Counted from the first letter of the stretch, positions 37,252 to 62,446 are shown. The stretch: DNA of 64,000 nt from Eledone cirrhosa (GCA_964016885.1 CAXHJY010001240.1:1-64000), one strand, 5' to 3'. Notes: a model not told the origin generated them from the letters alone. A program made the numbers and translations.

Positions 37252-37367
37252 TATAAATGAAAAGTATAGAAATTATTGTAGCAAGAAGCCAACAGTATTC
37301 CATAATATATAAGTGACTATAGATATATATATATATAAATTTTTTGCTCTACATGGCTGAATACAAT

Positions 37368-37965: not shown

Positions 37966-38026
37966 TATATATATATATATATATAGTTTTGCGAGGTTTT
38001 TTATATGAAATCGTGTGTCGAAACAG

Positions 38027-39487
38027 ATATTGTTATATTTGGGGAGGGTCATATTTGCGTAATATTGCCAGAATTAATAACAGAACACACTCACTGTTTG
38101 GTTGGTTTTCGCTTCTCGCTGTCTTTTATATATATATATCTGCGATCTAACTTACTCGGTCCTCAATGTTGCCATTGACTGACCGGCGGTCAAAAATAAT
38201 ACAGATACAATATAGACACAAACACATATATATAGTTTACATAATTTACATAAATCTTTCGTTGCACATCTGCAACATCGTCAGTGGTGTTATATTCATT
38301 GTTCCTCCTGTTGTGTTGTATGTCTACGCCATTTTTTTTTGTTCAGTCTGTCTATATATTTATTTATTTATTTGCTTGTTTGTTTATCTTATTTTATTTT
38401 GTCTTCTTTGCGCATGCGTTTGCGTGTGTGTATAGTGTTATGTGTGATGTGTGACTAGTGTGTATAGTGTTGTGTCTGCTGGGTGACTAGTGTGTGTTTA
38501 TGTGCTTGTGTATGTATTTATTTATCTTATTTTATTTAATTTTATTTACTTATTTATACTTCTCTTAGGTCAGTGTTGTTTGTTTGGGTGTTGTTGTTGT
38601 TCCACTCATTCTTTCTGTTTAGCTTTGGTCTTCTAATTTCTATTTCACTGGCCTCTCTGATTTGCCTATCTGCTGGGTCATTCCTATGTTTAGATATTAT
38701 TCTAATTTCTATGTTGTCTATGTTACCGTCATGTTGTTGTCTAGCGTGTTCGTATAGTACATGTTCGTATAGAACATGCTAGACAACAACATGACGGTAA
38801 CATCGACAACATAGAAATTAGAATAATATCTAAACATAGGAATGACCCAGCAGATAGGCAAATCAGAGAGGCCAGTGAAATAGAAATTAGAAGACCAAAG
38901 CTAAACAGAAAGAATGAGTGGAACAACAACAACACCCAAAGAAACAACACTGACCTAAGAGAAGTATAAATAAGTAAATAAAATTAAATAAAATAAGATA
39001 AATAAATACATACACAAGCACATAAACACACACTAGTCACCCAGCAGACACAACACTATCCACACTAGTCACACATCACACATAACACTATACACACACG
39101 CAAACGCATGCGCAAAGAAGACAAAATAAAATAAGATAAACAAACAAGCAAATAAATAAATAAATATATAGACAGACTGAACAAAAAAAATGGCGTAGAC
39201 ATACAACACAACAGGAGGAACAATGAATATAACACCACTGACGATGTTGCAGATGTGCAACGAAAGATTTATGTAAATTATGTAAACTATATATATGTGT
39301 TTGTGTCTATATTGTATCTGTATTATTTTTGACCGCCGGTCAGTCAATGGCAACATTGAGGACCGAGTAAGTTAGATCGCAGATATATATATATAAAAGA
39401 CAGCGAGAAGCGAAAACCAACCAAACAGTGAGTGTGTTCTGTTATTAATTCTGGCAATATTACGCAAATATGACCCTCCCCAAATAT

Positions 39488-39495
<8 letters not shown>
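38027..39495. mobile_element. Near-perfect ~725-bp-arm palindrome made of two 3' ends of a Penelope-like element
   Basis: Arms 38027-38751 and 38772-39495 with a 20-bp spacer. The right arm (+) translates EHARQQHDGNIDNIEIRIISKHRNDPADRQIREASEIEIRRPKLNRKNEW, resembling the C-terminal half of a PLE GIY-YIG domain. It ends in (TA)n. Confidence 0.8.
39238..39265 (+). ncRNA. Hammerhead-like core (incomplete), mirrored at 38257-38284 on minus
   Basis: CTGACGA-T-GTTGCA-GATG-TGCAAC-GAAA. Stem II is good, but I could not assign a convincing stem I or stem III. Confidence 0.45.
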
Positions 39496-39549
<54 letters not shown>

Positions 39550-39770
39550 TCCTCCTCATCATCATCATTGTTTAACGTCCCTTTTCCACGCTAGATGGGT
39601 TAGATGGGTTAGATGGGTTGTCCCATTAGAGGCAAGTTGGGTCAGGTGACCGTATCTTGCTCATATAGAACTGTTTCTAGCTATGGCTGGATGCCCTTTC
39701 TAATATATATATATATATATATTTATATATGATGATGATGATTATATATATGTATATACATATATATAGG

Positions 39771-39849
<79 letters not shown>

Positions 39850-39851
<2 letters not shown>

Positions 39852-40270
39852 TGCCTGCATACGAACAGCAATGTTGCATGGCAGTGAGACCTGGGCATTG
39901 TGTGCAGAGGATATACGCAGACTAGAGAGGAACGAAGCTTGCATGCTCCGCTGGATGTGTAACAGTAATATACGTGAACGGCAAAGCATAAACGAACTAA
40001 GGAAAAAATTAGAAATAAGAGGGATCAGATGTTGTTTACTCGAGAGAAGGCTACGTTGGTATGGACACGTGATGCGCATGAAAGTCGATAGCTGTATAAC
40101 AAAGTGCAAGGCAATAAAGATAGACGGTAGCCACGGAATAGGCAGACCTAGAAAAACCTGGGACGAGCTGATAAACTCCGACCTCACACACTTACACCTC
40201 TCCAAGACAATGTCACTGGACCGAGACCTTTGGCGGTACTCAGTAACAGAGAAGACCCGCCTTACCTAAA
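39850..40270 (+). mobile_element. RTE LINE 3' coding end, relatively intact
   Basis: MLHGSETWAL...RRLERNEACMLRWMC...RRLRWYGHVMRM...GRPRKTWDE. Confidence 0.9.
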
Positions 40271-40711
40271 TACATAGTAAAACCTACTACAGCCAGTAGG
40301 CATCTCTAACAAAATACCCCCTCCCCCCCCCCCCGTCCCACCACCCCCACCCCATCCACACCACCCCGTTCTATGTAAAGTTATGTTGGTGCCACACCAT
40401 CCAGGCCGAAACAAATGAGATCGTGTAGGTCTCACAACAAAAAAACACACAGTCCACGCTGTAATGTGGCCGTGTAGGCAACACGGTAAAAACATCCCAG
40501 ACCCACACTGTAAATGTGGTTGGTGTTAGGAAGGGCATCCAACTGTAGAAAACCTGCCAGACAGTCCTATGCGAGCAAGACAATCACTCTTGCCTCAAGT
40601 GGGACTACCCCCGTCCAAACCCATGCAAGCGTGGAACACGGACGTTAAACGTTGATGATGATGATGATGATGATGATATAGAAGTGGTTACACAACAGTT
40701 AGTTCACCATA

Positions 40712-40751
40712 CCAAGAACAATTGTTTCACCTTCGCGGATCTTCAGCTCGG
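40712..40751 (-). ncRNA. Minimal type I hammerhead ribozyme, inverted copy
   Basis: Minus strand CCGAG-CTGAAGA-TCCGCGAAGGT-GAAA-CAATTG-TT-CTTGG. The first pair of stem II is mismatched. Confidence 0.65.
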
Positions 40752-41389
40752 GATGTGTATGGTTATAGGAACTGGAAGGGCAACCGTACGAACACGCAGA
40801 AACTCAATCACTTCACACAGGCAATACTAGACTGCGTGCGGGAGGTGTACATTATTCTATGTACTATACATGCACCTTTGATGAGTTGTAGTGCACCTGA
40901 GCACTGTACACAATAATTTCATTATTATTTTTTTTTTTTATAACTGCGAAAGTCCGGAAAGTTTTTAGGTTGAAAATAAAATTTAAAAAAATTTAAAATA
41001 AAATTACAAAGAATCAGTCCGGGATTTCCCCTTGCGTATGGCCATACGCAAGGGGAAATCCGACGTGTGGCTTATGTATCGACGAACGAATAACTATCCT
41101 AAAGAGATTACGCAATAGTGATTGCCTAAACACGAGAAGTGAATTTTTCACACGTTGTCCACACGTCACCAAACATCTATTGCATAACTACAAGGCTCCG
41201 GACTGATTCTTTGTAATTTTATTTTTTATTTTTTTAAATTTTATTTTCAACCTAAAACTTTCCGGACTTTCGCAGTTATTTCCCTTACACCTCCCGCACG
41301 CAGTCTAGTATTGCCTGTGTGAAGTGACCGAGTTTCTGCGCATGCGCGTTCGTACGGTTGTCCTTCCTGTTCCTATAACCATACACATC

Positions 41390-41429
41390 CCGAGCTGAAG
41401 AGCCACGAAGGTGAAACAATTGTTCTCGG
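41390..41429 (+). ncRNA. Minimal type I hammerhead ribozyme (Penelope-associated type)
   Basis: CCGAG-CTGAAGA-GCC(ACGAA)GGT-GAAA-CAATTG-TT-CTCGG: stem I CCGAG/CTCGG, intact core boxes, palindromic stem III ACAATTGT, GUU cleavage triplet. Confidence 0.8.
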
Positions 41430-41523
41430 TATGATGAACTAACTGTTGTGTAACCACTTCTATCTAACTCGTCCCTTGGACTGAGTGCTCTACCACTACG
41501 GATATTACCTCCCAGTGTTCCAC

Positions 41524-41579
<56 letters not shown>

Positions 41580-41584
<5 letters not shown>

Positions 41585-41695
41585 AACGAGTAGGACCCCG
41601 ACGGCTGAGCTCAAGCCGTTTCGACGGCTAATTTAGTCCAGAATTAGCCGTCGAAACGGCTTGAGCTCAGCCGTCGGGGTCCTACTCGTTCCTAT
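41580..41695. repeat. Perfect 54-bp-arm palindrome built from the 3' half of a hammerhead
   Basis: Arms 41580-41633 and 41642-41695, loop TAGTCCAG. Each strand reads hairpin-GAAA-CGGCT(TGAGCTC)AGCCG-TC-GGGGTCC, with no CTGANGA box. Confidence 0.85.
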
Positions 41696-41771
41696 TACCC
41701 ACTCTACTACCCTAAGTATTGAGTACTTTGGTGCGTTATGGTCCATCTGGTTCCTTACCACATTTCCTTCG

Positions 41772-41866
<95 letters not shown>

Positions 41867-42533
41867 ATCATCGCCATTTTTATCACTGCTGGTATGGGTT
41901 TGAATGCAATCTTCCTGATTGCATGTTATGTTTGTCATGTTCCCCAATATTTTTCTCCTGTTTGTTTGTGTGTTGTCCCATTTTCTACTTGTTTCATTAC
42001 ATCTGATTAATCTCATAATCCAATGAAAAGCATTAAGCTTTCAATTCTCGAACTTTTAGTTTACTATTTCTCTCTCCTCTCATCAACATCATTGTCAATT
42101 AACATGTTTTCTCTGCTAACAAGGGTTTGCTTGGTTGTCACAGACCAAGTCCATATTTAATCTGAGCTACTAATCTTGCAAATAGGTTGGAGGCTCACTT
42201 CTGACTTTTTGTGTAGCAGGTTTTATAAGGCTTGTTGCCCTTCCTATCTATCATCAACATATCATCAACATCATCATTTCTTGCCAGGCTTCCATGCTGG
42301 CATGAGCTGGGCAGGATGGAGAATCTTGTCTTGCTTGTAGGTTCCATTTTTGCCATGGTTTCTATGGCTAGATACTCTTCCTAACACCAACCACTTGACA
42401 GAGTGTACTAGGTACTTTTATTGTGATGCCAGTATTACCATTTACAGAGTGATCTGGGGGCATTTTATTTTTGCACCAGCGTTACCACTTTATAAAGTGG
42501 ACTGGGTGCACTTTACCATGGCACATTTAAGAG

Positions 42534-43005
42534 CTAATAATTTTAAAAAATTAAAATTAAATAATTTTCTTAATTTTTTGCCCCCCACGATCATCTCAAG
42601 GAGGAAGAAGAGGAGGAGGGGGAGAAGGAGGAGGAGGAGAAGAATAAGAAGAAGAAGAAAAAGAAAAAGAAGAAGAAGAAGAAGAAGAAGAAGAAGAAGA
42701 AGAAGAAGAAGAAGAAGAACTAATAATTAAAAAAAATTAAAATTAAATAATTTTCTTAATTTTTTGCCCCCCACGATCATCTCAAGGAGGAAGAAGAGGA
42801 GGGGGGGGGAGAAGGAGGAGGAGGAGAAGAATAAGAAGAAGAAGAAAAAGAAAAAGAAGAAGAAGAAGAAGAAGAAGAAGAAGAAGAAGAAGAAGAAGAA
42901 GAAGAACTAATAATTAAAAAAAATTAAAATTAAATAATTTTCTTAATTTTTTGCCCCCCACGATTCTCTCAAGGAGGAGGAGGAGGAGGAGGAGAAGAAG
43001 AAGAA
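42534..43005. repeat. Tandem duplication, ~186-bp unit x2.5, containing (AGG)n/(AGA)n
   Basis: CTAATAATT..AAAAAATTAAAATTAAATAATTTTCTTAATTTTT.GCCCCCCACGAT starts at 42534, 42720 and 42907. Confidence 0.9.
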
Positions 43006-43868
43006 TATTGATATCACACATTGGTAATAATCTAGCATGAATTCCTGTCTAGATCAGTGGTTCTCAACTGGAGACCATATTTGGGGCTCCACACTCTAGA
43101 TGAAAACAAAAAAAAGTGTTACAAGAAAGTATAGAGCAGTGTTCTTAAACACAAGGACTTAAAAGGGACAAAAATGAGATGGGGGAGGGGCGTTGTTTCC
43201 ATCAGTTATAATGCTGATTGGCAGCTATTTATTGTTTTCATCAAAATAAATACACATATGATACTAAGTGGGATATGTGAATTAGTACAAAATGCAAGGA
43301 GACAGATTTTCGAATTTTCTTTAAAAGCCCATATATACATATATACATCTATATACATACATGGTGACAAATTATCAAGTTTTAGGGCGCGCCGGTATTG
43401 GGGCTGCGCCTCACAGACGAGACCGCAAAACCATTCCACCAGACAATGACCAGCAACACCCGCTGGCACAGCCCTTCATAAAAGGGCTGCTGACGTTCCG
43501 ATCTTGCAGAGGAATTTAGCAGTAAGGCGACCGGTGCGAAGAATTGTTTAGTATTTATTCTTCATACATTATCTAGCGATGCGGTTGGACAAGCACGCAC
43601 ACACACACGCACACACACACACACGCACGCAAGCACACACACACGCAAGCACACACACACGCGAACATATATTTATGTGTGAGTGTGGATGGAGTATTAA
43701 AGCAGATTTTGCGAAGTCAGTGTGTTTTTAGTTGTTTCTCCTCCTCTCTCTTTCATGTGTTTCTTGTATATAATATCAATTTTATATTTCATATGGTTTA
43801 TACAAATATTGAACATATATAAGAAAATAAAAACAGTTCTTACTACACAAAGTAGTTACATTGAATAT

Positions 43869-46800
43869 TCAAGTGTCTTTTGTGGTTATGCAAACGGAAA
43901 AGGAAGGGAAAGGCAAGGACTCTCGTGTTGCAGAAGAATGGGGAGGGTGGTGGGCTCTGGGCCTAGGGCACGGTGGTATTGGGGCTGCACCCCATGGACA
44001 AGACCTCAAAAGAATTTCCCATGGACAATGGCCAACGACACCAGCTGCAACAGTCACCCTACTTCGCGGGGCTCCTTCCTCAGATGGGTCGATCTTGTGG
44101 AGGAGCTCGGCAGTACAGGGTCCAAGTATGCCTGGGGTATCAACGGTGACCAGTGCGAAGAGGAAGCAGCTGGACAATCCCCAGTATTTGTTTATCTTTC
44201 TTTCCTTTGCATTGCGGGCCACAGTACTGGGGATTGTGCCTGAAGCGACTAAGTTGGGGGCGGAGAACGTGTCACAATACGTGGTGTCCCAGATGAGGGA
44301 TCTATCTCCTTTGGTAATTCCATTGGGGCACTTGCCATCTCCACAGTCAAGGCCTGCTGGCTTCAATTGTGATGGGAAGTCAGCTGCATCCAGACTCCTT
44401 TTCAATATGTTGTTGAGAGCGGCATGTCGGGGTAACTGGCCTGTGCTCTGGCAGCAAGAGAGTGAGTGTAGGCCGAACTTGTCAACGACCACCCTGCAAC
44501 GGCATTTATGTGGCTCACACACGCAGAGGCCAAGGTGTTGGACCACTCTGATGTGAGTGCACTCATCACCAAGAAGGGTACCGGTTGATGAAGAGGGCAG
44601 CGAATTGAGCCACGCACCACTGATTGGCTGTGAAGCGGAGCGGAGTCAAACGAGGCAGTGTTGGTTCAAGCGAGACTAGATCTGCCTGAAAGAAGACCTG
44701 CATATGATGACACCCTAGTTACGTTGGACATTTGTATAAAGAGGGAGAGAGGCCTTCGCCTGTCCAGTTGACCAGAACCTGTTCGAGCTCTGGGGCCATG
44801 GTAATTTTGGCCATCTTGCTGAGAACCTCGCTGATGAGGGTGCGACTGGAGGAGATTGGGGAAGGGTAGACCGGTAGAGCCAGATCCAAAGCTGATCGGA
44901 GGCCGGGGCCACCGAACCCCGCTGGGAACTTCACTTGTTGCCAGGTGCCGCTGTCAAAACTGACATTGCAGATGAATTCTGCACAGCGTCAGATGGTGGC
45001 GTCGAGTTCACCGGGAAGATCTGCGTGGGAATGACAAGGTGCACAGAAGGTGATAGCGTGAATAGAAATTTGGGGAGGGCGAAGCAGTTCCCCAAGAGGA
45101 ATCGCCCCGGGTGAGTGCAAATGAGATGCAACCTCTCTGCCATTCGGGACAAATTTGCATGCTTGGTCTCCAGGCATTCTCTGATGGCTTTTGAGAGGAT
45201 TGGAGAGCCGAGAATGCCTGCAGTGTCTTTGGGTGTTAGCCAAGCCCCAGACGGGACGGGATGGATGCTGAGTATGGCGTTATCGAATTCGGCCTCTCCG
45301 TAGCTAACGTTTCTCACTTCAGACTTAGATGAGCTGATCTCAGGTCTGAGGAGCTTTAGAGCTGGGATGATTTGCTGAAGGTCCTCAACTACTGTCTCAG
45401 CCAAGCCACCCAGGGTCGCGTCGTCCAGGTACCAAACGTTAAGGGGCAACCGAACTGAGCAGGCAACGTCGCCGACTGCCAATGCAAAGAGGAGCGGGCC
45501 GAGTATGTCTCCTTGCTGGACACCCGTGGCGGTAGTAATCCTATTGTCAGCGGCCTTGAGTGAACTGGGTCTTCCGTACGAGAGGTGAACGAGAGGGTAA
45601 ATGGAAGGGGCTCGTCTGAGACACGCCTCTAAGACGAGATCCCGCCTAACGCTGCTGAGGGCTTTTGTCATGTCCAGCTTCACAAGGAGGTGGGGTGACT
45701 TTCAAGCTATCTTGGCTGCAAGTCGTCGGAAGATGTTGCCCACCGCGATGGGGCAAGCGTCTCCATCATTCTTCCTCAGGGTGGTTAGACAGGCTGAAAA
45801 GAAAATATCGCGGGCATGGCTGGGCAAGTTGGCGCGGGGGAGACAGTTGGTGAGGGCTGTTAGCAACTGGAGCAATCGGGAACCTTCTTCTACAGCGTGA
45901 GACGAGATGATGTTTCTGTGGTGACCGGGACGCAAGTCGTCCACTCCGTCACTGCTGCTACCTTGGAAAGATCTAAGGGCAGCTACTACGTCCTCACTAG
46001 ACGCAGCAGGAAAAAGATTGCTGACCGAAGCTGGAATGTCCCTGGCGTCAGCTGGGGGGTCCGGATGTTTATGGCGAAGTGCTGATAAGACATAAGAGGC
46101 CAGCACACTTACCGCCGTCGAAACGTCGCCCTCAATTAGTTTGAGGTTGACTCGGTCCCGGAAACGTTTTATGCTGTCGGAAGTGGATTGCGGGCGTTGT
46201 GTTGGCTCTGGTGGGCAGCACGAGAGGGCCGAGAGACTCACAGATGAAGGATCGCAGAATGAGATGATATTGCTCTTGAGCCTCGAAGTCAGGATTCCTT
46301 ACCAACGCGATCCCGAGTACGAGGGTCGAAAAACTGAATAATCTGGTCCGATTTTGCGGGTCGCCCGAGTCAAGTGCTCGGTCGATTGAAGTCGTTAGCG
46401 CTTCGGCCACGGGAGTGCGAGCAGCTCTGGGGATCCTGGTGATGACTCTCTGTGACTGCCTGAGGTGGGAGATCACCACCAGAGCCTCATCCAAGTCCGG
46501 CAGGTTCGGGTCCCCGATGTGCCGGGCGTCCGTGACTACCTGTGGTGTCGAGACGGATAGGCATGACGGGTAGTGCCCCCGATACAAGGATTCCGAGAGG
46601 TGAAAGAAGCTGCTACAGTTAGAACAGTTCCTTCCTTTCTTGTGCCTGTTGCGCATGGTGCACAAGTGGCACTGATCGACCTCTCGTGGGGTGGAAGGTT
46701 GAGGAGAGGCGGGCATTTAATTGAGGAGTGTTGGAAATAGAGGCGGAACATTGAAAATGGCGAGAGTGTGGGTTGGTAGGAGTGAAGGAGAAGTAGAAGG

Positions 46801-46899
46801 GGGTGATGTGGGGTGAATGGGATGATTGGTGTGTGGAGGGATAGAGGGGAGAAGAATGGATGGAATGTGTGTAGATAAGGCATGCTCATTTGGTAGCAA
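43869..46899 (-). mobile_element. Degraded near-full-length CRE-type (RLE) non-LTR retrotransposon
   Basis: N-terminal Cys/His finger (CHLC...CSNC..FFHL); RT motifs PIAVGNIFRRL, GVQQGDILGPLLFAL and WYLDD; zinc knuckle C.C...D..GLH...C plus RHAALN; RLE-like IWDTTYCDT...KERKINKY. The reading frame is broken by several frameshifts. Confidence 0.88.
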
Positions 46900-47679
46900 A
46901 GTGAGAGTAAAAAACGTTACAATCCCCTATCTAGAAAACGTTTAAGACATTTGTATCACTCTGAAGTGAATGTTTCTTTAACTTCTCAACAACGATACTT
47001 CCAGTTTTGAAATAACATTAGTTTATTTACTTCAATATTTTCAAAGTGACAGTAAATTAACGCTACAATCCACTCCCAAAATAACGTTTAAGACATTTGT
47101 ATCACTTTGAAGTAAATGTTTACATGTAAGGCATAACCTATTAAGCCTATTAAGTTGCGTTAACGTGTTTGGATTTGGGAAATCTAACAGATTAGGGGTG
47201 TAATTCGCCTTCTTTAATCATATGTCCGAGGAAATATATTTTACATTGAGAAAACTTACACTTATCTAAATTCAACTTGATTCTAAGTTTGTAGATCACG
47301 TCGGGGTCACCACTTTAGGCGGGGTGGTCAGACATCCCGTCTAATTGGATATGGTATACTGGCACATAGTCAAACAAGGAAGAAGGAACATACCTCAATT
47401 TTATGTTATAGAAACATTTTTTAATAGGAGCAATTACAGAATATATTCAAATACATTAGTGCTCCTAGGTTGGGATATATTTTAGTCGTCATATAAAACC
47501 GCATGGTGTGATATCGTCTTTTGGATCACTGCGTGAGAAAACACGTCTATCGACTCCGTGTTATCATCATCCAAGAGCTATTGTTTCAGCTACTGACGTC
47601 AGAACTAAGGGCAGTTAATCGACTGCCTTCACAGTCGACGCTAGATGGCGTGATCTTCTACAAGTTCTGTCTTGAGTCA

Positions 47680-48270
47680 ACAGACAACGATATCATCGAT
47701 ATAAGCGTAAATACCTTCTAATTTACGTGAAGCAATAACATTATCTATTGTTCGCTGTAATATAGACACCGCGTTTATGCACCCGAACGGTAGACATGGG
47801 AATTCGCAAAGTTTTCCAAATACAGTTAGGGAATAATCAGATGATAGGAGAGATCTAATGGTAGGCGTTTTTCATGTCAATTATCGAGAATACGCGATGC
47901 CTCGCTACATTATGGAGGATGTCTTTGATTGAGCTGTGCAGGTTCGGGTCCCCGATGTGCTGGGCGTACGTGACTACCTGTGGTGTCGTGGTGGGTAGGT
48001 CTTAATGGAGTCCTCGTGTCGTCGATTATTTCTTGACGATGTGGAAATTGGTTTGAAGTTCTCAACGTCCACTCTTGGCATGAGACGCAGTGGTTCCATA
48101 TTAAGTGTTTTAAGACTAAGACAGTACGACATAAGCGGTAAGGTACCGCCAAATTGTAGGAAAACTGGAGCGTAGCGAGAAAGGAGGTCACATCCAAGTA
48201 TTAAAGGTGCAACTAGAGAGCATATAACATAGACTTTAGTATTAGAGTAGGAATTATCGTTAGTTGTCAT
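47680..48270 (-). mobile_element. Gypsy/Ty3 pol remnant (end of protease plus RT)
   Basis: LVAPLILGCDLL...FGG...KPISTSSR, then RVFSIIDMKNAYH*I, GKLCEFPCLPFGCINAVS and AYIDDIVV. Confidence 0.85.
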
Positions 48271-48299
48271 TCCCGCATTAACATGTCATTCCTTTTGTT

Positions 48300-48600
48300 G
48301 ATTTTTTGGTCCTGATCGAAGTTTTACTCATCAGAAAAAAAGCCAATGCATTTCAAGCTTTTGATGTTTCAACTTGCTCAACAAGCACTTTGTGAGAATC
48401 AGACTGTTATCTTTTGTCTTTGTAAACATGAATCGATCCCCTCGCATCACATATGACTTGCAGCGAAGGTCCTCAAGCACAATTTTTCTGATAGTGTGCC
48501 TTGAAACCTTAAGCTCCTTAACAATAGCGCTAATTGGGGTTCTTATCGATATTTTGCTGCACCTTTCGTACAAATTTCGGTGTTCTGGTATAAAAAAAGT
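48300..48600 (-). mobile_element. Tc1/mariner superfamily (maT/DD37D-like) transposase fragment
   Basis: IVKELKVSRHTIRKIVLEDLRCKSYVMR...LLSKLKH...WLFF, followed by a shifted SDE.NFDQDQK. Confidence 0.75.
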
Positions 48601-50689: not shown

Positions 50690-50970
50690 AGGCAACAACT
50701 TTGTCACTTTGGACACAGCGCCAGGCACTGCTGCTCGTAACGCAGAGGAGTAAAAGATATCCAAATACCAGGACTTAATCGACCGCTTCTTTTTCGTTCC
50801 AATCACCATCGAGACTCCCGGTGTCCTCGGTTTCCGGGCTGACGTTTTCTTCCGTAAAATTGGAAAGAGTTGCATCACACCTGGAGAAGGAGGTGGGGTG
50901 GCTGATGTAGCGGGTGTCACTGGCTGTTCTCCGCGACAATGTTTTCGCCATCTTGTCCGCGGGGTGCAGC
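50690..50970 (+). mobile_element. CRE-type RLE 3' fragment (others at about 49398-49555 + and 43380-43590 -)
   Basis: APGTAARNAEE*KISKYQDLIDRFFFVPITIETPGVLG. Confidence 0.7.
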
Positions 50971-51363
50971 TGGGATATACCACTTACACTGGAGTGCAAT
51001 GTCTGCTCCTTTCCCCTTTTTTCAGCATTTAACATTTTTCCTTCGTGTTTATTATGCGAAATATTTATATATCCACCAATGTAAGTTTTATATGTCTGTT
51101 CGTCATCGTTGGAACACATGGGGAGGGGATAGAAGAAGAAGAAGAAGAAGAAGAAGAAGAAGAAGAAGAAGAAGAAGAAGAAGAAGAAGAAGAAGAAGAA
51201 ACGAACGCGAATTTATACTTCTAAAATGTTCACGGAGGGGCTTTGTGTGCATGTAAGTGTGCGTCAGTGAATATACGTGTGTGTGTGTATTACTGTGATA
51301 TTTCTTTGGCGTTCCACAAGAGTCTAGAATGCATTTAAAATACATTAAGAAATTTATATTTTA

Positions 51364-52432
51364 CTAGCCGAATTACCCGCGCCTTGCTGCGTTTCACACA
51401 TTTTTTTTTTGTAATGATTGATTTTAAATCAGTGATATAATTCATGGAGAAAAACTCTGCATTTCAATATTACTCAATGTAAAATGTAATGCATGAAAAA
51501 TTAGAAAACATTATTTTTTGTAATATAAGGGCGGTGGATTGGCAGTATCTGTAGAGAGTCGGACGCCATGCTTTGCAGCACAGTTACGTCCCTTTACGGA
51601 CTGAGTTCAAATCCCGCCAAGGTTAACTTTGCCTTTCATCCTTACCGGGGCGATAAAATAAAGTACCAGTAATACACTGTGATAATTGCTGGCCTTGTGC
51701 CAAAAGTTGAAACAATTATTTTTTGTAATATATCAAAATTACATTATTAAATCTTATTCTTAGATGGCGTGGATTAGCAGTATCGGTAGAGGGTCGGACG
51801 CCATGCTTTCCAGCATAGTTACGTCCCTTTACGATCTGAGTTCAAATCCCGCCGAGGTTGACTTTGCCTTTCATCCTTACGGGGTCGATAAAATAAAGTA
51901 CTAGTAATGCACTGGGTAATTGCTGGCCTTGTGCCTAAAAGTAGAAACAATTATTAAATCTTATTCTTATTTTGTTTCCTGTAAATAAATTTTTTAAAAA
52001 TATCAATTCAAAACTTTTGTGAATAGGCATCATATCTTATCATTTACCTATGGTTTAAATTTCATATAAATCGAAAGGAAAAAAATTTCAGCGGGGGTTT
52101 GTGTCTCCGGGGAACCCGAATAGGGGGTTTATCCCTCATTAGGGTGTCTTAATATTATTGAAATTTGCTGAAATGTTGTGAATAGGCATCATATCTTATC
52201 ATTTACCTATGGTTTAAATTTCATATAAATCGAAGGGAAAACATTTTCAGCGGGCATTTTGTGCCTCCGGGAACCCTTTGATTAAAATGAAATATACTTA
52301 TCCAAGTACCCTGGGCAATGTAGTTTCAGAATATATATGGTTATGGGGGTCTATCTCCAAAACCATAGGAGTAGTTTGTGAACAAACAAACAAACAAACA
52401 AACAGACAGGAATACAACTTTATATATATAGA
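51364..52432 (-). mobile_element. Non-autonomous Helitron carrying two nested SINEs
   Basis: 5' A|TCTATATATATAAAGTTG, 3' CGCAGCAAGGCGCGGG...CTAG|T. Internal direct duplication at about 52019-52115 and 52180-52275. Confidence 0.8.
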
Positions 52433-53069
52433 TTTTCCAAAGCTAACAGCTGTAACAGTGAGAGAGCAGCATAGGAAAGGTCTATAAATGAGAGGAAAAG
52501 GAGGAGAAGACAAGGAAAAATACTAGACAAACGAAGAAAGGGGAGAAGGGGAGAGGGTGTATCTTAAAATATAAAAGCACAATATTGTTAAAATCAAAGT
52601 ATCAGTTGACGTTTATCCACATTGCATTAGCTTATATATAGTCGGGTTACATCAGTCTTAGAAAGTTAAGCAAAGTTAGGTGATACTAAGTACAATACAC
52701 GCATTTTACCACGAAGAGACACATAGCTATTTGATGTTATCAAAGTGAGGTGATACTAATAAGCACAATAACACACTGAGTTCTAATGATCCTAGCCTTC
52801 CGTCTACAATGATATTTTAAATGACGTAAGCTTCGGCATTGATTTAGATCTTCACGTAACATTCACTAATTTTTCATTTAATCCCCATTTTAGCTTTCAA
52901 AAAGATGTCAAAGAGAAAAATGTTCTTACTGTTCACAAGTTTTTCAGACAATGCCAACAAGGCAAGAAAGGAGGGAGAACCTGGAGAGGAGAGAGCAGAG
53001 GAAATAGAACCAAATAAAAGATCATATTTTAGTGATGATCTTCCAAAAGCTAATTCAAACCAAGAACAG

Positions 53070-56000
53070 TGCAGCAAAGGTACAGGTAGCCAGAACAAGG
53101 GCACTAGAGCCACCTACAGCAAAGGTACAGGTAGTCAGAACAAGGGCACTAGAGCCACCTACAGCAAAGGTACAGGTAGCCAGAACAAGGGCACTAGAGC
53201 CACCTACAGCAAAGGTACAGGTAGCCAGAACAAGGCCACTAGAGCCACCTACAGCAAAGGTACAGGTAGTCAGAACAAGGGCACTAGAGCCACCTACAGC
53301 AAAGGTACAGGTAGTCAGAACAAGGGCACTAGAGCCACCTACAGCAAAGGTACAGGTAGTCAGAACAAGGGCACTAGAGCCACCTACAGCAAAGGTATAG
53401 GTAGTCAGAACAAGGGCACTAGAGCCACCTACAGCAAAGGTACAGGTAGCCAGAACAAGGCCACTAGAGCCACCTACAGCAAAGGTACAGGTAGTCAGAA
53501 CAAGGGCACTAGAGCCACCTACAGCAAAGGTACAGGTAGTCAGAACAAGGGCACTAGAGCCACCTACAGCAAAGGTACAGGTAGCCAGAACAAGGGCACT
53601 AGAGCCACCTACAGCAAAGGTACAGGTAGCCAGAACAAGGGCACTAGAGCCACCTACAGCAAAGGTACAGGTAGCCAGAACAAGGGCACTAGAGCCACCT
53701 ACAGCAAAGGTACAGGTAGCCAGAACAAGGGCACTAGAGCCACCTACAGCAAAGGTACAGGTAGCCAGAACAAGGGCACTAGAGCCACCTACAGCAAAGG
53801 TACAGGTAGCCAGAACAAGGGCACTAGAGCTACCTACAGCAAAGGTACAGGTAGCCAGAACAAGGGCACTAGAGCCACCTACAGCAAAGGTACAGGTAGC
53901 CAGAACAAGGGCACTAGAGCCACCTACAGCAAAGGTACAGGTAGCCAGAACAAGGGCACTAGAGCCACCTACAGCAAAGGTACAGGTAGCCAGAACAAGG
54001 GCACTAGAGCCACCTACAGCAAAGGTACAGGTAGCCAGAACAAGGGCACTAGAGCCACCTACAGCAAAGGTACAGGTAGTCAGAACAAGGGCACTAGAGC
54101 CACCTACAGCAAAGGTACAGGTAGTCAGAACAAGGGCACTAGAGCCACCTACAGCAAAGGTACAGGTAGCCAGAACAAGGGCACTAGAGCCACCTACAGC
54201 AAAGGTACAGGTAGCCAGAACAAGGGCACTAGAGCCACCTACAGCAAAGGTACAGGTAGCCAGAACAAGGGCACTAGAGCCACCTACAGCAAAGGTACAG
54301 GTAGTCAGAACAAGGGCACTAGAGCCACCTACAGCAAAGGTACAGGTAGTCAGAACAAGGGCACTAGAGCCACCTACAGCAAAGGTACAGGTAGCCAGAA
54401 CAAGGGCACTAGAGCCACCTACAGCAAAGGTACAGGTAGCCAGAACAAGGGCACTAGAGCCACCTGCAGCAAAGGTACAGGTAGTCAGAACAAGGGCACT
54501 AGAGCCACCTACAGCAAAGGTACAGGTAGCCAGAACAAGGGCACTAGAGCCACCTACAGCAAAGGTATAGGTAGTCAGAACAAGGGCACTAGAGCCACCT
54601 ACAGCAAAGGTACAGGTAGCCAGAACAAGGGCACTAGAGCCACCTACAGCAAAGGTACAGGTAGTCAGAACAAGGGCACTAGAGCCACCTACAGCAAAGG
54701 TACAGGTAGCCAGAACAAGGGCACTAGAGCCACCTACAGCAAAGGTACAGGTAGTCAGAACAAGGGCACTAGAGCCACCTACAGCAAAGGTACAGGTAGC
54801 CAGAACAAGGGCACTAGAGCCACCTACAGCAAAGGTACAGGTAGTCAGAACAAGGGCACTAGAGCCACCTACAGCAAAGGTACAGGTAGTCAGAACAAGG
54901 GCACTAGAGCCACCTACAGCAAAGGTACAGGTAGCCAGAACAAGGGCACTAGAGCCACCTACAGCAAAGGTACAGGTAGCCAGAACAAGGGCACTAGAGC
55001 CACCTACAGCAAAGGTATAGGTAGTCAGAACAAGGGCACTAGAGCCACCTACAGCAAAGGTACAGGTAGTCAGAACAAGGGCACTAGAGCCACCTACAGC
55101 AAAGGTACAGGTAGTCAGAACAAGGGCACTAGAGCCACCTACAGCAAAGGTACAGGTAGCCAGAACAAGGGCACTAGAGCCACCTACAGCAAAGGTACAG
55201 GTAGCCAGAACAAGGGCACTAGAGCCACCTGCAGCAAAGGTACAGGTAGTCAGAACAAGGGCACTAGAGCCACCTACAGCAAAGGTACAGGTAGCCAGAA
55301 CAAGGGCACTAGAGCCACCTACAGCAAAGGTATAGGTAGTCAGAACAAGGGCACTAGAGCCACCTACAGCAAAGGTACAGGTAGCCAGAACAAGGGCACT
55401 AGAGCCACCTACAGCAAAGGTACAGGTAGTCAGAACAAGGGCACTAGAGCCACCTACAGCAAAGGTACAGGTAGCCAGAACAAGGGCACTAGAGCCACCT
55501 ACAGCAAAGGTACAGGTAGTCAGAACAAGGGCACTAGAGCCACCTACAGCAAAGGTACAGGTAGCCAGAACAAGGGCACTAGAGCCACCTACAGCAAAGG
55601 TACAGGTAGTCAGAACAAGGGCACTAGAGCCACCTACAGCAAAGGTACAGGTAGTCAGAACAAGGGCACTAGAGCCACCTACAGCAAAGGTACAGGTAGC
55701 CAGAACAAGGGCACTAGAGCCACCTACAGCAAAGGTACAGGTAGCCAGAACAAGGGCACTAGAGCCACCTACAGCAAAGGTATAGGTAGTCAGAACAAGG
55801 GCACTAGAGCCACCTACAGCAAAGGTACAGGTAGTCAGAACAAGGGCACTAGAGCCACCTACAGCAAAGGTATAGGTAGTCAGAACAAGGGCACTAGAGC
55901 CACCTGCAGCAAAGGTACAGGTAGCCAGAACAAGGGCACTAGAGCCACCTGCAGCAAAGGTACAGGTAGCCAGAACAAGGGCACTAGAGCCACCTGCAGC

Positions 56001-56678
56001 AAAGGTACAGGTAGCCAGAACAAGGGCACTAGAGCCACCTACAGCAAAGGTACAGGTAGCCAGAACAAGGGCACTAGAGCCACCTGCAGCAAAGGTACAG
56101 GTAGCCAGAACAAGGGCACTAGATCCACCTACAGCAAAGGTACAGGTAGCCAGAACAAGGGCACTAGAGCCACCTACAGCAAAGGTACAGGTAGCCAGAA
56201 CAAGGGCACTAGAGCCACCTACAGCAAAGGTACAGGTAGCCAGAACAAGGGCACTAGAGCCACCTACAGCAAAGGTACAGGTAGTCAGAACAAGGGCACT
56301 AGAGCCACCTACAGCAAAGGTATAGGTAGTCAGAACAAGGGCACTAGAGCCACCTACAGCAAAGGCAAGTACAGGTAGCCAGAACAAGGGCACTAGAGCC
56401 ACCTACAGCAAAGGTACAGGTAGTCAGAACAAGGGCACTAGAGCCACCTACAGCAAAGGTACAGGTAGTCAGAACAAGGGCACTAGAGCCACCTACAGCA
56501 AAGGTATAGGTAGTCAGAACAAGGGCACTAGAGCCACCTACAGCAAAGGTACAGGTAGTCAGAACAAGGGCACTAGAGCCACCTACAGCAAAGGTATAGG
56601 TAGTCAGAACAAGGGCACTAGAGCCACCTACAGCAAAGGCAAGTACAGGTAGCCAGAACAAGGGCACCAATGCCACCT
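53070..56678. repeat. 45-bp minisatellite, about 80 highly homogeneous copies
   Basis: Unit ACAGCAAAGGTACAGGTAGCCAGAACAAGGGCACTAGAGCCACCT with a few recurrent substitutions and two 4-bp insertions (about 56366 and 56640). Confidence 0.98.
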
Positions 56679-57967
56679 GATTATTGAATGCACCATGTCA
56701 CATAGAGGTGTAATGGAAGCTCTTGATAAGACCTTACAGGGCATAAGAGGCAACAATGCATCTATGGGAGGAGTTACATTAGTTTTATCAGGAGACTTCA
56801 GCCAGACATTACCAATCATTCCGAGAGGCACAAGATCTGATGAAATAAAAGCATTCATTAAGTCTTCGTGGTTATGGAATAAAGTACAGAATGTTCACCT
56901 TCAATACTAACATGCAAGCTTTATTACATGGAGACCAATGTGCAGAACACTTTTCAACCCGACTCCTTCAATTAAGAAATGGGACAGTTCCAACTGATGG
57001 GAATGGTTATATCAACTTGGCTCATATTGCTACCATGTTGAATTCGTCAGCTGAATTGAAGAACAGGGTATTTCCAGGCTTAAATAATCATTATAATTGA
57101 CACAAATGGTTGTGTAAAAGGGCAATTTTTGTTAGAAAAAACATGAGACAGTAACAAAGATTAACCATGAGCTAATGAATAAGATTCCAACAGTAATTAA
57201 GGAGTACAAATCAGTTGATTCAGTCCTTGATGAAAATCAAGCTGTCCACTACTCAACAGAGTTCCTTAATTCTCTTAAGCCACCTGCAACTCCTCCACAT
57301 AAACCTTTTCTGAAGGTAGGAGTCCCAATAATGCTTCTAAGAAATTCAGATCCTCCTAAATTATGCAATGGGACAAAGTTGATCGTGAAGACATTATCAC
57401 CTAAAGTGATTGAAGCTACCATCATTACTAGGTGTGTCTCTAGTGAAGATGTTTTCAATACAAGAATTCCAATCAAACCAACAGACATATCATTTGAGTT
57501 CAAACGAACACAATTCCCAGTGTGACTTTGCTTCTCAATGTCTATCAAAAAAGCTGAAGGTCAGACATTGAAATCTATTGGCTTGCACTTAAGTTTTTTT
57601 TTCGTAGTCAACTTGCTTTTCTCGTAGTCAACTTTACGTTGGTTGCTCCAGAGTGGGTAGTTTACAAAACTTATTAACCTATACTCCAAACCAGAAAACA
57701 AAAAATGTTGTTTACCCAGAAGCTCTTACATAATTTCCTTCAACATATGGGACATAATTTATATCCCCTCGTAAAAATAATAAATTTTGTATTTTCATTT
57801 TTTAAATTATTTCTTGTATTATGAATCATAATTGATTTCATCATGTACCTCAATTGAAGAATAAATGTAATTTAGAATAACAAATTTCTATACAACATAT
57901 TTGGCTTTCTTCTTCTAATATATCAGGAACACTTTAATTCCCAGGCAACACCGGGTGCTTCTGCTAG
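56668..57967 (+). mobile_element. Helitron 3' part: frameshifted PIF1-like helicase plus canonical 3' terminus
   Basis: QCHLII-ECTMSH...EALDKTLQ...GGVTLVLSGDFSQTLPII, LKVGVPIMLLRN.DPPKLCNGT, FKRTQFPV, QLYVGCSRV, NVVYPEALT-stop. 3' hairpin CCCAGGCAACACCGGG then CTAG|T at 57964-57968. Confidence 0.93.
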
Positions 57968-59208
57968 TATATAATAATTTCCTGCGATTAATAAATAACT
58001 AAACATCTTTGCCGCATAGCAGCATTGTGGAAATATCCAATGAAAGTCGTATGGTATTACAATATTTTGTGTGGGTGAGTTTGGACTGTGTAGTGGAAAA
58101 TACAGGATTAGTAATATTTTTGGTGCGATTACAGCCAGACATGTCCAAAACTAGCTTCGTCAGTTTACCAAACAGGGCGCACAACAGGGAGAGGGTGTCG
58201 CATCTGCTTAAGAGCACGTATAACAGTTTCCGTTTCTTTACTGTACACTCAGGATATGGCGAGCTTACTGTGTATACAATATTACGTTTACTGGCTTGTT
58301 TAAAACGATAAGGTAGATTTAAACGGATATATCACTGCTTATATCGGACAAATCGAGCAACCATGTCTGACTTATTGACTCGCCTGGCCGTAATATTCAT
58401 TCGGATGACAGAGAAATCAACAACAAATTGCTTACATCTTTAACCTTTTTTTTATAGTAAACTGCCTGAAACCGCCCCTGGCTCTATGATACTAAACTAT
58501 ATATTTCAAAGAGTTTTTATGTTTTTAAAAAAACCTCTCCAATTTCTAGGTTATTTTCAAAATAAAATATGGTAATGGAAGGCTTAACTTATGATATTAA
58601 CAGATACAAGGTATAGTATAGGCTAACAGCATCATGGAATATTCTCGATTCAACATGTGCAACTTACGATTACAACATTTTTACTGTTTGTTTGTTTGGA
58701 ATTTCATAGCATTCCAGTTTTAAGCATAGCTTTTACTAGCTTTAACATGTTTTCTATCTATCTTTTACTAGCTTTAACATGTTTTCTATCTCTCTTCTCT
58801 ACACTGTGTCGAAAAATGCTTTATAAGCATTTTTCAACCGAGTGATGACAAATGCTACATAAGCATTTGTCACTAGTGTAGTAACTGGTCGGAGGTATAT
58901 TTCAACTGTTAATGCCCTTCTATTTTTGGTTTTCCCTACGTCCTTGGTTGTGGGTTTTATCAGCTTACAAACTACAAACGAAGGCGCGTAGCTGAGTGGT
59001 TAGAGAATTGGATTTGCAATCGTGATGTTGTAAGTTCGATTTCCGGACTGGGCAATGCGTTATGTCCTTGAGCAAGACACTTTATTTTACGTTGCTCCTT
59101 CTACCTGGAGTTGCGACCGATAGATAGAATTAGCAATTGAAAAGACCAATGGAAACGATGTTTCCTCGGTCCGATTTGACGAAAGTCGATCGTCTGTCAA
59201 TATATATA

Positions 59209-59325
59209 TAGCCTACATAGAGTACTCCCCTTTCCTACCGAAACACTTACTATATATATATATATATATATAGTAAGTGTTTCGGTAGGAAAGGTAGAGG
59301 AAAGGGGAGTACTCTATGTAGGCTA
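59209..59325. repeat. Palindrome centred on (TA)n that mirrors the tail of the adjacent hammerhead element
   Basis: TAGCCTACATAGAGTACTCCCCTTTCCTACCGAAACACTTAC-(TA)n-reverse complement, with an 11-bp indel between arms. Confidence 0.9.
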
Positions 59326-59365
59326 CAGAGCTATTTAGTTATGTAATAAACAACATAAGACAATT

Positions 59366-59440
59366 ATTCCATTTACCAAAGGTTTCACGAAGACAGACGA
59401 TCTCTACACAGACGTCTGAAATCGCTCATCAGAATGAAAT
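59366..59440 (-). ncRNA. Type I hammerhead ribozyme with extended stem II, inside a 57-bp-arm inverted repeat (59336-59392 and 59453-59509)
   Basis: Minus strand ATTTCATT-CTGATGA-GCGA...TCGT-GAAA-CC(TTT)GG-TA-AATGGAAT: 8-bp stem I with one GU pair, canonical core, GUA triplet. Confidence 0.8.
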
Positions 59441-59503
59441 TTTATTTGAAGACTTCGTGAAACCTTTGGTAAATGGAATAATTGTCTTATGTTGTTTATT
59501 ACA

Positions 59504-59553
<50 letters not shown>

Positions 59554-60223
59554 TGAAGAATAACCTGGTCAACAGTACAAACAAGGAAATTTATTTACAG
59601 TTTAACAATTGTTTCCATGATAGAGTTGTCTAAAAATTGCTAAACACTGAAGATTACCTTTAACGATTTATTGTTATCCTATATATATATATATATGTAA
59701 AAGTTCTATTTAAATTGTTGGGATACAACAAGCAAATATTTTTATAACTGATATAAAGCACTCAACAAATATTTGGAGTAAAAATACGATATTAACAAAT
59801 GGAAACTATATTTATAAAACCATATTTATTTCATTATACATATTTCAAAATATTATCAAAATATTAACAAAATAGATATTCTATTTTGTTGATATTTTGG
59901 ATTAATATTTATGACTCTGGAAAAACAATCTGTTGAGTGCTTCCAATCTATTGTAAAACTCATTCTTTGATTTATTCATTGAACCTTGTTTAACTTTTAA
60001 ATATATATATATATATATATATATATACAAATATATTACACAGAGAGAAGTGTGTTACACAGTGAGATGTGTGTAAAGAATTATTACATGTGAGTTTAAC
60101 CGTTGATTCTGACTTAGTGTTCTTTCTATTTAATTGCCAACCTGTTGAAAAGGTCATAGGAGTGAAGAGTGCTCTATGTAAGTGCCAGAGCTAAATTTAA
60201 TGTATAATAAACAATACAATATA

Positions 60224-60299
60224 ATTACCTCATTACCAGAGGTTTCCCGAATAAGACGAATACGAAAAACGTCCCCATTCGTTCGTCGGATAAGGCAAT
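60224..60299 (-). ncRNA. Degenerate hammerhead related to 59366-59440
   Basis: ATTGCCTTAT-CCGACGA-ACGAAT...ATTCGG-GAAA-CC(TCT)GG-TA-ATGAGGTAAT. The core reads CCGA instead of CTGA; the downstream tail is homologous to 59300-59365. Confidence 0.55.
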
Positions 60300-61126
60300 T
60301 TAAAACATAGTGAAATATTTGAAAAATCTCCTCAAGAAAGGCAAAAGTTTAACGAGCAAAAAAAATATAAATAAAAGTAATGCAAGAGATATATAAAACA
60401 ATAAGGAAATATCGTTAGGCTATGTGTATAAATGTGTGTATATTCACTCACAAATGTACATATGAGTGTATATACAAATGCATGTGTATAGGGGAAAAAT
60501 GTGTGCGTAAGTACATATATGAGGGCAAGCATATCAGTGTATGTGTGACCACAAATACGTATATAATATATGTTGAAAAAGAAATTGTAAGATAATAGAG
60601 TTAACGTACATCCAGATACAGGTATTAAAGAATTAAATATAGACACATACAAGTATGAAAGCACGCGTATAAACACAAACACACGCGCGATCACACACAT
60701 GCGAGTGATATATAGAGGGAAGGGAGTCTAATTACTCATTCAAACGTCAGATAAAATACTCTGGGAGTTTGGTTACATTCCTTTACGTTCCAAGTTCAAA
60801 TGCCGTCCAAGTCTACTTTAGCTTTTATCAAGTACTATGAAAGTATGTAATAGAATATAAAAATCAATATCTATCGCTTTTATGTCGCAATCAGACCTAA
60901 CCCATTTTGATCTTTTACTACATTCTTCCTCCCTCTTTGTGCACTGTCCTTAACTGTCCGTACAGTATGATGTATCGATACATATAAGTTTCTATTATAT
61001 TGTTCATATAGTGCAGAGGTTCTCAAAGTGGGTGCTACCGGGGGGCGTTGAAAAGGTCCAGGGGGGCGCTGGGATCTAAGGGAGTGATGGGGCGTGGTAG
61101 TATATTAAAATATCAAATGATACATA

Positions 61127-61413
61127 TCTATATATATAAAACTGAGGATGTCTGTGTGTGTGAGTTTGAATCCCTAAAACTAGAGAAGCACCCAACCGAC
61201 TGTTTTCAAACTTTACACATGTAATACTTATGTTTCATGGAATGTTCTGAACAAAAAATGTTCAATGCCCTAGGGACCGCATTAGGCGATTTAACGATCT
61301 CTCTCTATAATTCTTAGCCTTTCTCTTTTTAGATAGATACATACATATAACGTCGCGCCCTTATAATATCTGTCTGTATGTCTGGCTGTCTGCATTACCT
61401 CACTTCCCTGGGG

Positions 61414-61448
<35 letters not shown>

Positions 61449-62048
61449 TTTGAATCCCTAAAACTCGAGAAGTACCCAACCGATTCTTTTCAAACTTTAC
61501 ATGTGTATTACTTATGTTTCAGGGAGTGTTATGCACATAAAAAATTCATTTTTTAAAAATCTCCTAGAGCCCACATTAGGTGAAAAACTGCGTTTTTTCA
61601 GGTTTTTAGGGGTTATTTGAGGCATTACGTCAGACCGATTTCCTTGAAATTGTAACTATGTATTAGTCAGTCTCTTCTTCATACCGTGAGCAAAGAAATC
61701 CAACTTTTTTTATGGCCTAGGGCCCGTATTAGGTGAAAAACTTCAATTTTTCAGCTTTTTAGGGCTTTTTGGAGGCGTTACGTCTAGCCGCTTTTCCCGA
61801 AATTTCAAGGCATATTAGGCACATAAAAGAAATTTATTTTCTTGATCCCCTAGGGCCAGCTTTAGGTGAAAACCTGCATTTTTCCTGCTTCATCGAGGAA
61901 AATCTTAAAGATTATCCAGCCATCAGAGTATTCGGTTTATTTTCTTTACATATTGTCCGGGCATGCAGTTTTTCCACGATTAGGTCTGTTGGCGGCCCGC
62001 GTTCCAAAATACCTTATCCCGTGCAATGCCGGTTATATATAAATATAG
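61127..62048 (+). mobile_element. Non-autonomous Helitron with a duplicated 5' segment
   Basis: A|TCTATATATATAAAAC start, 3' hairpin CCCGTGCAATGCCGG with a variant ATAG|T end. The 5' block is repeated at about 61410-61530. Confidence 0.7.
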
Positions 62049-62446
62049 TAAAATAAAAAATATGTAATTTTTATTTATACATAGTATTTGGCAGTATTGG
62101 TAGAGAGTCGGACGCCATGCTTTCCAGCATAGAGTTACGTCCTTTTACGGACTGAGTTCAAATTCCGCCGAGGTTAACTTTGCCTTTCATCCTACAATAA
62201 ACTTTAAAAAAACAACAACAAAAAACAAGAAAATACATGTACTTGCTGACAAAACTATATATATATATATATATATATTGAATATATATGGTGGGAGTAT
62301 CAACATAGGAACAACACAAGATATCCTGATCCGAATTTGTTCCCTGAACTCTTCTTTTAACGAAGGACTTTTATCCCGAAATATTAAAGACCATTAAATA
62401 ACTCGAAGTAACATTCCAACACCTGTTATCATTATTTTTAATATCA

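Follow-up and report, generated by a model that had tools for sequence, protein, structure and literature searches.

Probable Penelope-like element ends forming fold-backs at (TA)n tracts in Eledone cirrhosa

Why do palindromes, several of them carrying hammerhead ribozyme sequence, recur beside (TA)n microsatellites in the DNA of Eledone cirrhosa? We addressed this question in a single window of 64,000 nt (the whole 64-kb stretch of DNA that was analysed, to which all counts refer unless another data set is named), which has a G+C content of 37% and 51 TA tracts of at least 10 nt. An earlier note on this DNA had listed elements that we call E1 (39238), E2 (41390/40712), E3 (41580), E4 (59366) and E5 (60224); to these we add E6 and E7, which lie within 59697-60000 and were absent from that list. 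Our preferred reading, to which we give a probability of about 0.82, is that the fold-backs are 5′-truncated 3′ ends of several families of Penelope-like elements (PLEs) lying in (TA)n, and that each mirror pair is likely to derive from one insertion event. The earlier note had proposed either PLE remnants, mobilized by a (TA)n-targeting GIY-YIG PLE, or retrozyme-like RNAs. The former proposal is supported by an endonuclease end within the E1 sequence; the latter is not, as no element is directly repeated in the window.

Fold-back pairs and their contact with TA tracts

We found five head-to-head pairs (E1, E2, E3, E4 and E6), and in all five one arm extends 41-90 nt further 3′ than its partner and ends at a TA tract. 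The inverted, 5′-truncated partner and one-sided tail of canonical PLEs are thus present in 5/5 fold-backs. The ends of the tail-less short arms, which were set by the inverted-repeat boundary independently of TA, adjoin a TA tract in three of five cases (E1, E3 and E4), against a background of 0.0083 per end (binomial P = 6e-6), and the proposed termination at (TA)n is borne out. The short-arm end of E2 adjoins a (GAT)n/AT border and that of E6 adjoins another element. A gap of 0-10 nt separates the 5′ ends of the paired arms in E1, E2, E3 and E6, against 60 nt in E4, and the junctions of E1 and E3 are hairpins. Because the arm 5′ ends nearly match and junctions form hairpins, a single strand folding back is favoured over two separately truncated strands. 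Inverted partial copies had been reported for most of the listed elements; they are present at 39238, 41390, 41580 and 59366, as well as in an unlisted pair at 59848-59910, but 60224 has none. The window contains 12 distinct local inverted-repeat loci (18 rows, grouped by hand), 6 of which are PLE-type ends.

The tail-less short arm of E2 (40678-40849, minus strand) carries a hammerhead with a weakened helix II and joins the (GAT)n/AT border. It is separated by a centre (40850-41285) from the long arm (41286-41526, plus strand), in which a type I hammerhead (41390-41429; site GUU, palindromic helix III) is followed by a tail (41464-41526) that ends at (TA)28 (41527-41582). The two arms differ by 9 substitutions and a 6-nt indel. 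The centre holds the 3′ piece of a repeat (40852-40929, 98.7% identical to 6683-6761) and a 340-nt element (40940-41279) that is flanked by T runs, has inverted ends of 82 nt (96%) and includes a perfect 40-nt hairpin (41022-41061). The short arm of E3 (41580-41632, minus strand) is joined to (TA)28 and is 100% identical over 53 nt to the long arm (41643-41772, plus strand), which contains the 3′ half of a hammerhead (GAAAC..GUC, 41653-41675) and a tail (41696-41772) and ends at (TA)28 (41773-41828). In E4, the long arm (59273-59452, minus strand) includes a complete type I hammerhead (59440-59366; helix I of 8 bp, site GUA) and a tail (59331-59273) and ends at (TA)11 (59251-59272); its tail-less short arm (59453-59509, plus strand) holds a hammerhead 3′ half and enters (TA)22 (59508-59551). 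The E6 fold-back (59848-60000, plus strand) has a short arm at 59848-59878 (minus strand) and a long arm at 59881-60000, and ends at TA (60001-60027).

At least six pieces, E4 and E6 among them, are stacked between successive TA tracts at 59200-60310, as if a single microsatellite had been struck repeatedly. The others are a tail-only copy of the E4 family (59209-59250, plus strand) that lies between two TA tracts and begins within the stem-loop described below; a TA-flanked piece (59552-59679, minus strand) that is a candidate only; E7 (59697-59847, minus strand), a TA-ended piece that has lost its hammerhead; and E5 (60028-60310, minus strand), a relative of E4 (75% over 114 nt) whose hammerhead (60300-60223) has a U4-to-C change and which lacks an inverted partner. 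Three further tail or half copies had been suggested, none of which was confirmed. The one at 59550-59615 has only a 12-nt match, at 59615, to the hammerhead 3′ half of E2. Neither a hammerhead nor a hairpin is present at 4505-4629 or at 62290-62400, and neither stretch is significantly similar to the other elements; we delimit the former as a small head-to-head inverted pair with TA-rich flanks (4506-4626) and the latter as 62288-62400 (minus strand), both as candidates only.

An endonuclease-coding end in E1

E1 appears to hold the coding end of a PLE. From a (TA)11 tract (37964-37985), its left target, extends a long arm (37986-38760, minus strand) that reads as a 5′-truncated PLE 3′ end, comprising an endonuclease end (38760-38554), an untranslated region (UTR), a hammerhead core (38284) and a 41-nt tail (38026-37986). 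An 11-nt fold-back junction (38761-38771) repeats the arm's last letters and pairs, as a 7-bp hairpin, with the beginning of the tail-less short arm (38772-39495, plus strand). The 724 nt of this short arm match the long arm at 99.4% identity, differing by 4 substitutions and 1 indel, and enter (TA)28 (39492-39547). A G-to-A variant at 38026 was considered as a boundary and rejected, being a substitution within the tail. Directly left of the (TA)11 tract, at 37366-37963, lie two inverted copies (86%) of an abundant dispersed repeat. The description of this element as short is refuted: E1 is a 724-nt fold-back with 198 nt of endonuclease open reading frame (ORF), and it lacks the GAGYRCT hairpin of the other elements.

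The ORF piece (38772-38969, plus strand) is C-terminal and includes the stop codon; translation of 38775-38969 gives 64 residues (P0001) followed by the stop. Searching 1.84 billion representative proteins with P0001, phmmer found 11 at E ≤0.001 (best 3.5e-9), and the profile match has an independent E value (iE) of 3e-14. When P0001 was compared with longer proteins by a word-based search, none of four candidates passed. Alignment of the 11 relatives revealed YIGET-type (GIY-YIG) motifs, cysteines between the motif halves and an upstream CxxC linker, with the H, R-Q, E and N columns invariant. The GIY-YIG and cysteine motifs, and likewise the CX2-5CxxC linker, sit in the relatives upstream of the point at which E1 is truncated. 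A Pfam scan did not find GIY-YIG in P0001 itself and matched it in 2 of the 11 relatives, under the curated cut-off. A search with one relative returned 47 longer proteins, and P0001 aligns to the C terminus of 23 of these 47, most with YVDD; a weak RVT_1 match was present in 5 of 11 relatives scanned, the reverse transcriptase (RT) itself lying outside the truncated E1. Atlas neighbours of one long relative bear RVT_1, GIY-YIG and HTH_animal, and a cluster look-up gave names for none of six proteins. By homology, the C-terminal CCHH-type GIY-YIG endonuclease of canonical PLEs is assigned to E1, and to E1 only. The relatives of P0001 have the RT-then-endonuclease order, with P0001 at their C terminus, which likewise places E1 as the 3′ end of a PLE of that order and outside the Naiad elements. 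The PLE clade of E1 is also represented by a decayed RT/thumb piece at 1431-1913 (minus strand; profile iE 1e-9), which lies upstream of a (TA)24 tract by 200 nt; neither an endonuclease nor a hammerhead was found after it.

The E1 stretch matches 24 public sequence runs, which carry 16 organism labels and include one wastewater run, several at small shares, and we compared 37990-38790 with four of them. No RNA run is listed for the stretch, which has no bearing on whether it is expressed. In run X1, 8173 contigs fit, with a summed depth of 2e5 to 1.6e6 across most unmasked bins, which is not a copy number, and depths of 4-17 for the contigs listed. The E1 family is plainly abundant. At low depth, X4 yielded only 12 contigs and X5 only 4, and 1.9 Gb of raw reads from organism F contained 4 partial reads, all of <90% identity. 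The matches across organisms are explained equally well by traces of DNA from a very high-copy repeat and by horizontal transfer. The E1 tail is covered in the run contigs and is therefore element sequence. One X4 contig fits as far as 38760 and then continues unlike the window, its loose letters reading by eye as an open frame like that of the homologues; one X1 contig switches strand elsewhere, at 38112/38636. At all 15 sites that are variable in X1, both arms of E1 carry the same allele, including six at which the window has the minority allele, and therefore one template served both.

Among 22 metagenome loci of the E1 clade, nine of which reach the 3′ end, two (L009 and L010) have a hammerhead core approximately 275 nt past the ORF match, compared with 269 nt past the stop in E1, and in two (L005 and L012) the hammerhead-bearing UTR recurs as an inverted copy; this layout is thus characteristic of the clade. 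The window contains no full copy of a PLE; L001 and L007 have direct terminal repeats, which may also stem from tandems assembled into contigs. In L012, a fold-back (921-1060) also lies upstream of a hammerhead core that looks complete, 1.4 kb ahead of a PLE-type RT match, a layout like that of E4.

Hammerheads and a stem-loop in the tail

In the window, a strict type I descriptor gave two matches, at 41395 (plus strand) and 59432 (minus strand), against a mean of 0.025 per window in 200 Markov-shuffled windows. Permitting an extra nucleotide after A9 added 39238/38284, the core found in both arms of E1, and permitting one core change and one closing mismatch added 60289 (minus strand), with a helix I of 11 bp. 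The E1 core (39238-39290, plus strand) has CUGACGA, an extra U, a G-C-closed helix II of 6 bp and GAAA, and its helix I is only 2 bp at the core; constrained folding of this core returned no fold with the 2-bp helix I. The claim that each element has a hammerhead core or its 3′ half stands for E2 and E4, whose type I folds are complete by sequence and prediction, for E5 in mutated form and for E3 as a 3′ half (41653), but in E1 it meets the 2-bp helix I. Helix I of E5 differs in sequence from that of E4, and pairing is kept in both. Judged by sequence and predicted fold, a type I hammerhead is present in the 3′ repeat, as in canonical PLEs. An Rfam scan of the window listed no hammerhead family among 97 matches (E up to 5); these matches are TA-rich hairpins under gathering scores and include sub-threshold matches to microRNA families. 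Upstream of the hammerhead, CGCATGCG occurs at 39105-39112 in E1 and at 41338-41347 in E2, and elsewhere in the window only in the other arm of E1; CGCATGC, which is similar, lies ahead of the core in L009 and L010. It is possibly a promoter element.

The GAGTACT/GAGTGCT motifs noted earlier near element ends are present and form the 3′ side of a hairpin that E2 to E7 share. Its order is RCTC, an upper stem with its loop, a bulge of 1-2 nt, GAGY and then RCT. A descriptor of this stem-loop has six matches in the window, one in each of E2 to E7, all in the sense of the element and 35-140 nt before (TA)4; shuffles gave 0.57 matches anywhere. Dropping the RCT requirement also left six matches, five still with RCT and nearby TA. 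Bare GAGYRCT sites elsewhere number 22, only one of which lies 20-150 nt before TA, namely the truncated copy of the E4 tail (Fisher P = 2e-5). Upper stems of four pairs occur in 5/6 stem-loops and are all different: GTCC/GGAC in E2 (41467-41489, plus strand), TACT/AGTA in E3 (41701-41727, plus strand), TGTA/TACA in E4 (59308-59331, minus strand), TGGA/TCTG in E6 (59914-59941) and CAAA/TTTG in E7 (59779-59757), which requires a 2-nt loop; the sixth is that of E5 (60191-60168). These pairings were taken from the descriptor script, as the upper stem is misplaced when the six stem-loops are aligned automatically. As a background only, we listed 53 viral-contig and at least 120 prokaryote-contig matches to similar letter patterns: four pairs were reached by 10 of 173 of these unrelated matches, and in no element among them did stem-loop and hammerhead occur together.

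In all four fold-backs that have the hairpin, the short arm halts just ahead of it, by 3, 5, 0 and 3 nt in E2, E3, E4 and E6, respectively. The distance from the predicted cleavage site to the stem-loop is 42 nt in E2, E4 and E5 and approximately 25 nt in E3. The stem-loop is likely to mark an internal stop or start of reverse transcription. More tentatively, and at somewhat less than even odds, a group of PLE families may share it as a structured tail signal (bulged RCTC, variable 4-bp stem, GAGY and RCT) that sets the point at which the second strand stops or begins. We did not find the RCTC/GAGY stem-loop in the open literature; Repbase, Dfam, subscription papers and figures lay outside that search and may contain the motif.

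Known relatives and formation of the mirror pairs

Inverted truncated copies, tails, hammerheads and a (TA)n bias have already been described for PLEs in the relevant parts of PMC8557442, PMC3846280 and PMC4209133. The elements of the window are new members of this known kind, and the shared stem-loop with its fixed distance to the short arm is the part worth following up. As described in passages of Craig et al. 2021 (PMC8557442), PLEs have an inverted 5′-truncated copy, a tail of 30-40 bp and a preference for (TA)n. Canonical endonuclease-bearing PLEs of the Neptune/Nematis type resemble the relatives of E1 in the RT-then-endonuclease order and in the CX2-5CxxC linker, given there as a Neptune/Nematis feature, and canonical PLEs resemble the window elements in the hammerhead near the 3′ end, the inverted 5′-truncated partner, the one-sided tail and the microsatellite target. 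They differ in that the relatives of E1 have DKS and GG(A/P)IG motifs and that tails here measure 41-90 nt; GGPIG/GGAIG was not found in the text of that paper's supplement. By eye, the linker spacing of the E1 relatives is nearer to the Nematis than to the Neptune rows of its Fig. S2. A killifish Neptune paper held nothing on targets. Naiad elements, which File S1 of PMC8557442 lists for two Octopus species, share the (TA)n target, inverted copies and a tail, but in that account have an N-terminal endonuclease and no canonical hammerhead. We ruled out Naiad for E1, E2 and E4: the E1 endonuclease closes with a stop and then a 3′ UTR, and the hammerhead folds of E2 and E4 are complete.

The Penelope elements of Adineta vaga, in the passages of Arkhipova et al. 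2013 (PMC3846280) that bear on them, are alike in their head-to-head inverted pLTR (pseudo-long terminal repeat), in a 31-bp tail on one copy and in palindromes at the inverted junction, for which self-priming is proposed; they have defined target-site duplications in place of (TA)n targets, and those passages hold no shared tail stem-loop. Poseidon PAc of Anolis (Frangieh et al. 2024, PMC11167929, in part) is alike in a tail bounded by two reverse-transcription start sites, a start region with a stem-loop, an AT-rich target and a hammerhead with reduced helices, but is a single family with an AC-rich stem-loop, whereas here an RCTC/GAGY stem-loop spans unalignable families. Minimal PLE hammerheads, as portrayed in sections of Cervera and de la Pena 2014 (PMC4209133), typically have an extra nucleotide after A9; they share this feature and G10.1-C11.1 with E1, a small palindromic helix III with E2, a variant with a 2-bp helix I, and opposite-strand pairs 100-700 bp apart. 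They differ from the 8-11-bp helix I and long helix II of E4 and E5 and from the 5-bp helix III of E3. An annotation of Octopus vulgaris counts 31 recently active Penelope-like families, ribozymes and palindromes going unmentioned in the portion concerned (PMC13282606).

The order of events would then be as follows. A GIY-YIG enzyme would nick (TA)n, and reverse transcription would begin at the end of the tail and halt early. The nascent strand would fold back and copy itself until 0-5 nt ahead of the tail stem-loop, which may serve, as RNA or complementary DNA (cDNA), as the landmark defining this internal point; TA microhomology could let that end join the far side of the target. Stacks such as that at 59200-60310 would build up where one TA tract was used repeatedly.

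The same elements might instead arise if a dimeric PLE enzyme nicked both strands and each nick served to prime a separate cDNA on a single RNA, one at the tail end and the other just ahead of the stem-loop, the truncated cDNAs then being joined head to head. This explains the fixed short-arm end directly, and the shared alleles are compatible with a single RNA template. In vitro, according to portions of PMC11167929, PAc uses the two sites bounding the tail as starts, and it cuts and extends both strands, which fits two primed strands rather than a fold-back. Separately truncated cDNAs should, however, end at unrelated points, whereas the 5′ ends lie 0-10 nt apart in 4/5 pairs, in E1 after more than 720 nt, and the hairpin junctions of E1 and E3 also argue against this route, which we regard as unlikely. 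Nor do we favour, at a low probability, the idea that E2 to E7 are short non-autonomous parasites consisting of a pLTR only, which borrow a PLE enzyme through the hammerhead and tail stem-loop that they have kept. Coding sequence lies beside none of them, a structured motif is common to unalignable sequences and both arms of E2 begin at the identical base; autonomous PLEs heavily truncated at the 5′ end would look no different, however, genomic PLE hammerheads are mostly single motifs from truncated copies (PMC4209133, in part), and E3, E4 and E6 break off at differing distances from the stem-loop.

It is very improbable that the elements are non-LTR retrozymes, tandem hammerhead repeats that yield circular RNAs. 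As treated in parts of Cervera and de la Pena 2020 (PMC7229834), these likewise place a type I hammerhead in a non-coding stretch, and the long helices I and II of E4 and E5 could allow monomer folding; but tandem units, of 150-450 bp in that account, define retrozymes (PMC7229834 and bioRxiv 10.64898/2026.07.22.740005, in the parts concerned), whereas the copies here are single or inverted and tailed, none is arranged head to tail in the window, and an endonuclease end is present in E1. Sequencing or assembly artefacts that mimic fold-backs would suit the 99.4% identity of the E1 arms and a junction that no listed contig spans, but are scarcely credible given that the arms of E1 and E2 differ, that the mirror halts at the element end without entering the flanks, that 5/5 pairs have a one-sided tail and that other insertions lie within the E2 centre.

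Several observations weigh against PLE ends formed by folding back and marked by a shared stem-loop. A six-frame profile search of the window found PLE coding sequence only in E1 and the remnant at 1431-1913, none of it attached to E2 to E7, and the E1 junction was spanned by no contig listed among the four runs compared. Tails here exceed the published length, and the in vitro behaviour of PAc fits two primed strands better. As for the stem-loop, E1 lacks it, and a version with a paired upper stem was present in 0/22 metagenome loci of the E1 clade, nine of them reaching the 3′ end. The upper stem of E5 has 2 bp only. The descriptor was built from E2 to E5, leaving only E6 and E7 out of sample, and these are similar to each other (z 4.6). 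For E3 and E6, another fold is lower in energy than the proposed stem-loop, and the z-scores obtained on folding, from -0.6 to -2.6, are weak.

Elsewhere in the window, we observed a cluster of inverted units of approximately 105 nt flanked by TA (391-851), whose ends we take to be reminiscent of Tc1/mariner miniature inverted-repeat transposable elements. Approximately 80 copies of a 45-bp unit, at 97-99% identity, occupy 52860-56700 and are open for >1100 codons on both strands. Broken ORFs of a non-LTR retrotransposon lie at 43869-46716 (minus strand), with an RVT_1 match at 44934-45701 (E 1.3e-6), and a Pif1 2B domain match (E 5e-14) at 57136-57525 (plus strand) is probably a Helitron helicase fragment.

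How PLEs form their inverted ends and tails is named as a next task in the sections of PMC8557442 on this subject, and the window supplies a structured tail motif at a fixed distance from the short arm and an arm geometry that favours fold-back copying. For annotators, TA-flanked hairpins of this window that score as sub-threshold matches to microRNA families are likely transposon ends. If the shared signal is real, the tail stem-loop would be a PLE counterpart to the 3′ stem-loops read by LINE (long interspersed nuclear element) enzymes, and non-coding hammerhead stubs could ride one enzyme into (TA)n tracts.

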